From: Octopus vulgaris
Lineage: Eukaryota
NCBI GenBank assembly: GCA_951406725.2
Contig: OX597834.1
Span: 35,712,001-35,776,000, forward strand
Direction: 5' to 3'
Length of the DNA stretch: 64,000 nt
This document shows, piece by piece, positions 20,027 to 42,607 of the stretch. Below the pieces are notes generated by a model, which searched no databases, was not told the DNA's origin, and saw nothing but the letters and a program-made list of their open reading frames with translations. The position numbers and the translations under genes were made by a program. Within the stretch, counting starts at the first letter, position 1, and each line of letters begins with the position of its first letter.

Positions 20027-20067
20027 AGTGACTTCGAAGTTTCGGCCATTAAAACCATCGTCAGACT
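20027..20067 (-). ncRNA. Intact minimal type-I hammerhead motif
   Basis: Minus strand: agt-CTGACGA-T-GGTT-ttaat-GGCC-GAAA-CTTCGAAG-TC-act. Palindromic ACTTCGAAGT, GUC triplet, stem I agt/act. An inverted truncated copy (gaaacttcgaagtcact) follows at 20077-20093. Confidence 0.75.
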
Positions 20068-22413: not shown

Positions 22414-22618
22414 TTAATTATAATAATAATTACCATTTCTAATAAGCGCACAAGGCCTGGAATACATCACCACCAGCACTACCACCACTACCACCACTGC
22501 TATCACACCAGTACATCTACACCACCGCCACCACCGTCACCACCACTACCACCACTGCTATCACATCAGTACATCTACATCACCAACACCATTATTGTTA
22601 TCATTATTATTATTAATT

Positions 22619-22905
22619 AGGTCATCGCCTGGAATCGAACTCGGAATCTTGGAGTTAGTAGCCCGCGTAGTAGTTAAGAGCGCGGGGTACTAACCTCAAG
22701 ATTCCGAATTCTATTCCAGGCAGTGTCCTGAATAGTAATGATAATTATAACATCGAAAAATACCTTAGGAATGAGAACCCAGGTTCGAAATTTCCCCCAA
22801 GACACCTGATGAAGGCTGGAGAGTATATCAGCCGAAATTTTGTGTTAACGACAAACAAGATGAGTACAAATATCCGTCAAATGTAAATAATGTAAATAAT
22901 GTGTA
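22619..22905 (+). mobile_element. Element with head-to-head tRNA-like inverted repeat followed by a hammerhead-like motif
   Basis: 22619-22667 is the reverse complement of 22681-22729 (about 8 mismatches), with A-box-like gtagtagttaagagc and B-box-like gagttcgattcc. Then acac-CTGATGA-A-GGCTG-gagagtatat-CAGCC-GAAA-tttt-gtgt at 22802-22845. Confidence 0.65.
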
Positions 22906-22925
22906 TAACATATATATATATAAAT

Positions 22926-23180
22926 TGCATGGATTCCAGAGAAATATGTCCTGTGTATCATATGTGATAAACAGGACAAATTGGAAATGTGATATCATGT
23001 ATGGTGCATGGATGCCAGAGAAACATGTCTTGTGTATGATATGAGATATACAAGATAAGCAAAATTGGGAATGTGTATCATATATGATGCATGGATGCCA
23101 GGAAAATATGTCTTGTGTATCATATGTGATAAAGAGGACAGGCAAAAATTAGGAATGTGATATCGTGTATGATGCATGGA
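22926..23180. repeat. Tandem repeat, 79-85-bp unit, 3 copies
   Basis: tgcatgga starts at 22926, 23005, 23088 and 23173; atgtc.tgtgtat.atatg.gata is in each full unit. Confidence 0.85.
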
Positions 23181-23972
23181 CACGAGGGAAATCAAGGACC
23201 ACAAGATGGTTTACGATGGACATGACAACAAGTGTTTAGCAATATAAGCTCAGAGGCAGGCAAGTTGTGGGAGCTTGACCAGCGAAATATAGAGCATTGC
23301 CCCAGGTATTTTGTTCCACGTTACTCCAGTTTCTTAGTCGCATCATTCTAGTCGAGATATTGGATCAAATGCCAAAGGCCGAAAAGGGTACTTGTGTCTG
23401 CTCTCGATTATATTGATAGCTGAAAGAAATAGTGATACACTGGTAAAAGTTAGTAAATCATACTCACTCGCGAGTAACGTCCACGTCCCGGGCATTGATG
23501 GAAGCAAGATTTCGCACGAGGTGCATGGATTGCATACGGATGAAGACTAAGAGTGGAGGGTCACGGAGGAACGACAAGGGGGTGGGGGGGACGTTACCAT
23601 CTGCGATGAGTGGGCGTTTTATGACGTGGTTTACTAGTGGGACTTGATGAAAAGGAGGAAGAGAACGGTGATGGTTATTTGTGATTCGACGACGATGATA
23701 ATAATGATGATGAAGATGATGATGATGATGAGGATGATGATGATGGTGATGGCGATGGTGGCGATGACGATTATTCTTCCCAAATAATCGACATATAATG
23801 TACTTTCCCGATAAAGATTAGCATCAGAAGTCATCAACCATCGCCCGACCACACGCAAAAACGGGAGAAGTTTTATCTAACAATTTTTTTTTTCAAATTA
23901 TATATGGCAGAGCAGAGAAACTTCATCAATTGTTGTGCATCGTATTCACACAGTAATATATATGTATCTACT

Positions 23973-42053: not shown

Positions 42054-42590
42054 CAGTGGTTGAACAAAATAATAGAAACACCCGGCATCATAGCATCGTA
42101 ATTTGGAAATGTCTATAAAACGTCAAGAGCGTGTTTATTTTTATGCTTTTTGATTTATTATTAGTGTTGCTTAATACGTTTTGCTAAAATTGCTGTTTCT
42201 TTTCAGATATCACCAGAAGAAGTTAATTAAAATTCATTAAAATGACAGATCTTTCGGACTTTCAAAGAGGTAAAATTGTTGGTGCTCGTATGGCAGGCGC
42301 TAGCGTAACGAAAACAGCCGAAATGTTTGGTGTATCAAGAAGTAATGTCTCGAAAGCAATGACAGCTTTTGAGAAAGAGGGAAAAACCTCGTCGTCGAAA
42401 CAAAACTCCAGAAGAAAAACAAAATTTTCTGTTAAGGACCGCCAGACTCTTATGCAAATTGTTAGAAGGGTTCACAAAAGTACAGCTTCCAAAATTACTG
42501 CAGAGCTTAATGACCACCCCGAGAACCCAGTTTCCACAAAAGCTGTTCACCGGGAGCTGCACAAAGCTAGATTTAATGAGAGGGCTGGTT
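42054..42590 (+). mobile_element. Tc1-family DNA transposon, 5' fragment
   Basis: Starts TA|CAGTGGTTGAACAAAATAATAGAAACACC (Tc1-type TIR start) and continues into a transposase N-terminus. No right TIR seen. Confidence 0.85.
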
Positions 42591-42607
42591 TTAGTTTAAA
42601 GTCATAA
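42242..42607 (+). pseudogene. Truncated Tc1-like transposase (paired-like HTH region only; no DDE domain)
   Basis: MTDLSDFQRGKIVGARMAGASVTKTAEMFGVSRSNVSK...RRKTKFSVKDRQTL...TASKITAELN...VSTKAVHRELHK is a typical Tc1 N-terminal pattern. Confidence 0.85.

Follow-up and report, generated by a model that had tools for sequence, protein, structure and literature searches.

The element at positions 22596 to 22900 of the window, which is the whole 64,000-nucleotide stretch of Octopus vulgaris DNA that was analysed, very probably derives from the pseudo-LTR of an autonomous Penelope/Poseidon-type element, a 276-nt unit joining a tRNA-derived head to a hammerhead motif. The fuller explanation, in which the locus is a decayed head-to-head insertion of this pseudo-LTR and the head is likely an RNA polymerase III (Pol III) promoter, appears reasonably probable.

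Anatomy of the locus

The original prediction described inverted tRNA-like arms followed by a hammerhead and a tail, and all of these can be seen at the locus. The arms (22596-22667 and 22681-22752) are 72 nt long and 82% complementary, whereas a length of 49 bp had been given, and the region has a predicted fold of -115 kcal/mol (z -10.6, 100 shuffles). They do lie head to head as proposed, but they are not two whole tRNA-like segments: compared to the family majority, the locus is composed of a single 276-nt unit present twice, each time incompletely, with nt 32-103 in inverted and nt 16-250 in direct orientation.

The inverted arm (22596-22667, minus strand, 91.7% identical to the family majority) covers the 3' part of the tRNA-like head and the AAT tract and lacks the 3' part of the unit. 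An intact B box lies at 22632-22640 (minus strand) in this arm, which has no A box. The direct arm (22665-22900, plus strand, 93.6% identical to the family majority) overlaps the inverted arm by 3 nt. It starts with the 5'-truncated tRNA-derived head at 22665-22730, where the start of the A box is missing, leaving a remnant at 22665-22673, and the B box at 22708-22716 has two changes. The head is followed on the same strand by an AAT microsatellite (22731-22752), the length of which differs strongly from copy to copy, and by an ATG at 22771-22773, the likely ORF start of the element. The frame from this ATG is open through the hammerhead in the family; the window copy has a 1-nt insertion downstream. 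The A-rich 3' segment (22847-22900, plus strand) stops at the shorter of the family's two 3' ends, without the tail extension.

The hammerhead motif at 22801-22846 (plus strand) has the predicted layout and is of the minimal type I, with the architecture described in the available text of PMC4209133. Stem I is formed by 22801-22805 and 22842-22846, the core at 22806-22812 is followed by one extra A, stem II is formed by 22814-22819 and 22828-22833, and GAAA is found at 22834-22837; cleavage is predicted after 22841. In the window copy, the stem III palindrome (22837-22840) is altered by two changes. The suggestion that an intact stem III was ancestral is borne out by the family, where the intact palindrome is the commonest state (18 of 49 arms picked independently of the motif), and a 32-mer spanning stems II-III and containing this palindrome occurs 2,214 times exactly in the genome, compared to 0 occurrences of the reversed control. 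Rfam does not indicate a hammerhead or a tRNA in the window, the locus, or a less diverged copy among the matches listed (150 of 427 for the window), and nearly all of the listed window matches are microRNA-hairpin noise. Cervera and De la Pena (2014) found minimal type I hammerheads to be inactive as monomers in the tests described in the available text (PMC4209133). The octopus motif would likely cut only as a dimer or with the help of a protein.

The window copy is decayed, with damaged boxes and a damaged ribozyme, and transcription from its own promoter or self-cleavage is unlikely. There is no long coding frame of the Penelope element within the window.

Several further features were observed around the locus and elsewhere. 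Three degenerate copies of a tandem unit of about 80 nt follow directly after the element (22914-23191), and the sequence at 22465-22589 contains a 58-nt duplication. An open frame at 42227-42607 (plus strand) presumably resembles the N-terminal part of a Tc1-type transposase. Other hammerhead-core-like motifs are found in the window at 20064 (minus), 41985 (minus), 59757 (plus), 62428 (plus), 4080 (plus), and 56377 (plus), none of which passed a filter for stem I and stem II; the one at 20064 has a short perfect inverted repeat on its flanks. Elsewhere in the genome (L031:2300-4550, in G000:C1:20000001-20010000), an about 359-nt tandem array carries canonical type I hammerheads in seven identical copies, of which five are direct and two are inverted, and by its sequence looks like a non-LTR retrozyme unrelated to the tRNA-headed Penelope family.

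A tRNA-derived head on a coding Penelope-type element

The best alignment of the head to 25 distinct tRNA genes of the octopus genome is to a tRNA-Arg (49/77 identical, z 7.9), in a sample of six amino-acid types outside which a closer parent may exist. Although the head is only 49/77 identical to this tRNA, the A box and the B box of the family majority are perfect, and both boxes are kept in 49 of 105 arms. Because of the boxes and the alignment, we classify the head, on sequence comparison, as tRNA-derived, with the A and B boxes that are expected of a tRNA SINE. ARAGORN reported 0 tRNA genes in the window, and the guessed Ile-like and Thr-like tRNA motifs gave no match. In ORF-linked copies, the linker before the head (region of L122:1477-1500) repeats the first bases of the head in inverted and degenerate form and pairs with them as a hairpin; it is possibly a relic of the capture of the head.

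Coding sequence adjoins some copies upstream. When the genome was searched with ORF DNA only, the head was found about 25 nt past the end of the match in 28 of 30 loci, or 27 of 29 if the locus of the query is left out. A BLAST search with the sequence 3' of one copy's tail placed the tail before the ORF start in 26 of 30 loci, with several continuing through the whole ORF. An autonomous Penelope-like element, for which the original prediction had called, thus shares the hammerhead and the tail, the unit lying at both ends of its ORF, and complete pseudo-LTR/ORF structures are seen at L252 and L253. The majority unit is 2,652 nt long and has a single frame of 835 residues from the first Met, which precedes the hammerhead; the 276-nt unit comes after the stop codon and also overlaps the start of the ORF. 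Contigs of four other organisms likewise span the ORF end into the head.

At the protein level, 51 homologues were found at E<=1e-20, most of them with the reverse transcriptase domain RVT_1 (Pfam ID PF00078). The natural ORF fragments of the family alone yield no Pfam match, and two homologues, P0001 and P0003, pass the RVT_1 cut-off. P0003 is 53% identical over the query fragment, and its N-terminus likewise reads through the hammerhead. The C-terminal region is conserved among the homologues, and its motif layout is, we assume, that of the GIY-YIG endonucleases of Penelope-like elements (PLEs). The Pfam GIY-YIG model does not match this region, nor P0001 or P0003; the domain is therefore assigned as a putative GIY-YIG, from the motif layout and the conservation. 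A search of the octopus genome with the Anolis homologue P0049 returned the tRNA-headed family in all 30 fetched top matches. A PDB sequence search gave 0 matches. The linkage at the ORF end and the ORF start, the 835-residue frame, the homologues with PF00078, and the P0049 matches together place the unit as a very probable Penelope/Poseidon-type pseudo-LTR, in agreement with the Penelope-like machinery that had been proposed.

Other, younger Penelope-like families found by a Pfam GIY-YIG search were rejected as partners, being without the 276-nt unit; they served as controls for the T4 runs discussed below. One of them, seen at L241, L077, L082, and about a dozen further places, has intact 781-residue frames with a CxxC linker that the 835-residue element lacks, and we take it to be Neptune-like. 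A further young family (L377-L381 and L384) has long intact frames and near-identical copies, with no canonical hammerhead or A box within 700 nt downstream. At L256 and L110, a fragment of another Penelope-type reverse transcriptase lies immediately after one copy.

Copy ends, polymerase, and alternative readings

The ends of the copies were studied in 89 position-ordered, hammerhead-anchored loci, being the first 90 fetched of the 2,214 matches minus L166, which is the same locus as L165; second arms were skipped. An inverted head-to-head arm is found in 57 of the 89 loci, so the inversion recurs as anticipated. The family has two 3' end sites, separated by about 26 nt, and in 44 of 49 complete pairs one arm ends near nt 250 and its partner near nt 276. 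The inversion had been put forward as the signature of a new class, but inversion together with a one-sided tail was described by Craig et al. for Penelope elements (PMC8557442), and the available text of the Adineta Penelope paper reports both traits as well (PMC3846280), making this a general Penelope hallmark. Thousands of copies with this two-site, head-to-head pattern offer an extensive natural data set on how Penelope elements insert.

The 5' ends are concentrated at the head. Among 52 loci reaching unit nt 11, 40 stop within the next 25 nt, where 3.5 are expected from the truncation rate elsewhere (P 9e-37), and the other 12 run on into the linker or ORF; the count is slightly conservative, since L163 shows at least one head that was missed behind a long AAT tract. 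Counted per anchored arm, 26 of 33 stop at the head boundary (P 7e-19), and the same boundary is the top loose end in the contigs of four other organisms. The boundary lies 13 nt upstream of the A box, a spacing that fits a tRNA-type start.

The sense strand of the 2,652-nt majority unit has zero runs of four T (T4). The number expected is 4.6 by base shuffle (P 0.005), 2.9 by codon shuffle (P 0.027), 3.5 to 4.4 with the codon usage of the controls (P 0.009 to 0.017), 2.8 when its own codons are resampled (P 0.05), and 1.4 under an order-2 Markov model (P 0.24). Other Penelope-like ORFs of the genome have 9, 8, 7, and 8 runs against 7.2, 5.8, 5.4, and 8.0 expected, and 26 other ORFs, some of the same family, have 93 against 82.5 (hand sum). 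Among 37 natural copies of the tRNA-headed family, 30 T4 runs are found in 65.9 kb (0.46 per kb), at scattered sites.

The 5'-end pile-up at the head, the perfect A and B boxes, and the lack of T4 runs argue for a reading by Pol III, and we put the proposal that the head is a Pol III promoter for the whole coding element at slightly better than even. Such a drive, for which the original prediction had argued, is plausible from the sequence and would apply best to the coding element. Several points count against it. The T4 signal comes from one family and weakens to the P values of 0.05 and 0.24 given above for its own codons and the order-2 model. One of the 26 other ORFs (L058, P 0.04) is similarly depleted, and the control families lie outside the Poseidon clade; the P0049 search for a sister Poseidon family as a matched control had returned only the tRNA-headed family in its 30 fetched top matches. 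None of seven inspected near-full-length copies has a complete upstream promoter, the best reaching unit nt 43, and an uncapped RNA would need unusual translation. In three raw cDNA runs (organism B), the coverage is about equal on both strands, with no start pile-up; the loose ends coincide with the boundaries of genomic copies, and these reads therefore cannot name the polymerase. The internal promoter of Drosophila Penelope is a Pol II promoter. Both this promoter and a start site are located within the pseudo-LTR (PMC8557442), so the 5' pile-up alone names no polymerase.

A second reading is that an ordinary Penelope/Poseidon element carries a passenger tRNA-derived insert and is transcribed by Pol II or by read-through, the stops at the head reflecting a Pol II start, a hairpin, or palindromes. 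A hairpin does span the boundary in the long RNA (-12.5 kcal/mol) and could cause stops or annealing there, which also weighs against a Pol III promoter, and many junctions are perfect palindromes centred on the boundary. The 5' ends of rotifer Penelope pseudo-LTRs have palindromes of 18 bp and 38 bp, with tRNA unmentioned in the available text (PMC3846280), and the T4 statistic is modest. However, a local palindrome is missing at many of the 5' ends that fall in unit nt 0-11, structure would be expected to halt copying at about nt 23, where the stem has its 3' base, and not at the apex, and a passenger insert leaves the perfect boxes and the zero T4 runs unexplained. We regard this reading as unlikely, though deserving of weight.

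The original prediction had proposed a separate SINE-like class, which would make the solo units a Pol III SINE lineage of their own, for which the Penelope protein does the copying in trans. In favor of this, 77 of 89 loci have no ORF sequence, 49 of 105 arms keep both boxes, and the short tandem derivatives L218 and L237 have a junction in common, at which the ORF start leads back to unit nt 1. Against it, no fixed difference separates 132 solo from 52 ORF-linked arms in 58 tests, the lowest P being 0.001 at a CpG site and 0.008 outside CpG; for this comparison, 12 self or duplicate loci, and every locus longer than 4 kb, had been removed. The divergence of the head is equal (solo 0.053, n=54; ORF-linked 0.056, n=28; P 0.88). 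Long 3' ends often continue into ORF-start sequence, as for templates composed of the 5' repeat plus the ORF. The enzyme of the anole element needs RNA beyond its start sites (PMC11167929, available text), and solo units would presumably lack such RNA. Since solo and ORF-linked units share sequence and age, and the unit is part of a coding element, no separate class is supported, nor was a non-autonomous lineage apart from its partner found, as would be expected of a tRNA SINE; we consider this reading improbable. The loci without ORF, the arms with both boxes, and the L218/L237 junction mean that some non-autonomous sources may exist.

Short tandem derivatives in which the tail and the first part of the ORF are joined to unit nt 1 are seen at L218 and L237, and also at L092, L115, and L230; the former two may be a small non-autonomous subfamily.

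That a tRNA-like palindrome came to lie next to a hammerhead-like motif by chance, for which it could be said that neither part is called by ARAGORN or, among the matches listed, by Rfam, is refuted and has next to no probability, since the 40 scored candidates among the 2,359 found with 22668-22900 match nearly the whole query at 88-100% and the parts co-occur when approached from the head, hammerhead, and ORF sides. The claim that head and hammerhead are joined is upheld by 24 of 29 head-anchored loci carrying both in one arm (hand count, window locus left out).

The family is present in sequencing runs of five organisms. The 32-mer is exact in 4 of 49 arms not selected on it, giving about 27,000 arms genome-wide, and forty evenly spaced 10-kb stretches contain 4 loci, giving about 28,000 when scaled to the 2.8-Gb genome; both estimates rest on 4 events each. 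The copies are dispersed and mostly single or head to head, with direct pairs in few loci (not formally counted). In L297, L306, and L317, where truncation falls in the AAT tract, the copies abut one and the same short stretch of another repeat, located upstream, which suggests that they inserted into the AAT tail of that repeat or recombined with it.

The mechanism that we propose on the Pol III reading starts from an upstream repeat, in which Pol III would initiate at unit nt 1, about 6 nt before the tRNA-like +1, and the transcript would run through the terminator-free 2.65-kb unit. As in anole Poseidon (PMC11167929, available text), the RT/GIY-YIG protein would bind the RNA just inside the ORF, and reverse transcription would begin internally at one of two sites. 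A start within the 5' repeat would give short SINE-like copies ending at the 5' end of the RNA. If both cut target strands serve as primers, two cDNAs would arise, only one of them with the tail, and microhomology or short palindromes would join them head to head. Tandem or circular RNA would give the ORF-bearing copies. The two-ended priming step is drawn from another species: Frangieh et al. describe that the Poseidon protein of the anole cuts the two target strands and extends them, that reverse transcription starts at two internal sites bounding the tail, that the enzyme requires RNA reaching 172 nt into the ORF, and that hammerhead cleavage is dispensable in vitro (PMC11167929, available text).

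Relation to known elements and significance

The octopus element resembles Poseidon_Ac of the green anole (PMC11167929) and Adineta Pen2a (PMC3846280), as far as the available texts describe them, in having a single ORF with a reverse transcriptase followed, at the C-terminus, by a GIY-YIG domain (putative here), a pseudo-LTR with a hammerhead overlapping the ORF start, two 3' ends with an optional tail, inverted head-to-head 5' copies, and frequent 5' truncation. It differs from them in that a tRNA-derived head that contains A and B boxes stands at the start of the repeat, where the 5' ends pile up, and in the lack of a T4 run; a tRNA head does not appear in the available text of PMC11167929, nor the word tRNA in that of PMC3846280. 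The hammerhead is similar to the minimal type I hammerheads of metazoan PLEs (PMC4209133), with a short helix I, a longer helix II, one unpaired base before helix II, and a palindromic helix III remnant, and these are likewise mostly single dispersed motifs or opposite-strand pairs 100-700 bp apart. The octopus hammerhead is, in contrast, linked to a tRNA-like head, the word tRNA being absent from the main text of that paper as available.

Schistosoma Sm-alpha and Sj-alpha also combine a Pol III-type promoter with a following hammerhead, but they are non-coding and often tandem (PMC6765202, available text), whereas in the octopus a coding element has the unit as its end repeat, and the copies are dispersed, mostly in head-to-head arrangement. 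Non-LTR retrozymes are short hammerhead repeats proposed to derive from and ride on PLEs (bioRxiv 10.64898/2026.07.22.740005; PMC7761336; available texts). They are defined as tandem arrays, with no tRNA or Pol III mentioned in the available text of bioRxiv 10.64898/2026.07.22.740005, while the octopus family is dispersed and physically continuous with the ORF. The head-to-tail array of a non-coding unit that characterizes Sm-alpha-like repeats and non-LTR retrozymes was not found. Cassandra, Helenus, and Ajax also carry small-RNA-derived sequence inside a retroelement terminal repeat, but these are non-autonomous LTR elements (PMC10886601, available text), whereas the octopus element is autonomous and Penelope-like.

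The available text of the octopus repeat annotation, including its supplement, does not mention hammerheads (PMC13282606). In the full-text literature, a scope without subscription papers and repeat databases, we found no description of a tRNA-headed pseudo-LTR or of a Penelope element read by Pol III; the family may already be catalogued in repeat databases under a SINE or Penelope name. The inversion and the one-sided tail are known Penelope features, and what is new here is the pile-up at the head, the perfect boxes, and the T4-free unit.

We give about an even chance to the scenario that an autonomous coding Penelope element would have captured a tRNA-type promoter and purged terminators across 2.65 kb, with Pol III RNA serving as both mRNA and template. 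With reverse transcription starting internally, the 5' repeat would then give rise to SINE look-alikes by the tens of thousands, without a LINE or a separate SINE lineage being involved. If true, a coding retroelement would be driven from a Pol III promoter, which would make testable how an uncapped Penelope RNA is translated and what purpose the hammerhead has. It would also provide a physical link between Penelope elements and promoter-plus-hammerhead repeats like Sm-alpha, and a route to SINE-like repeats without such partners. As a warning, solo end repeats of Penelope elements may be hidden among the repeats classified as tRNA SINEs.
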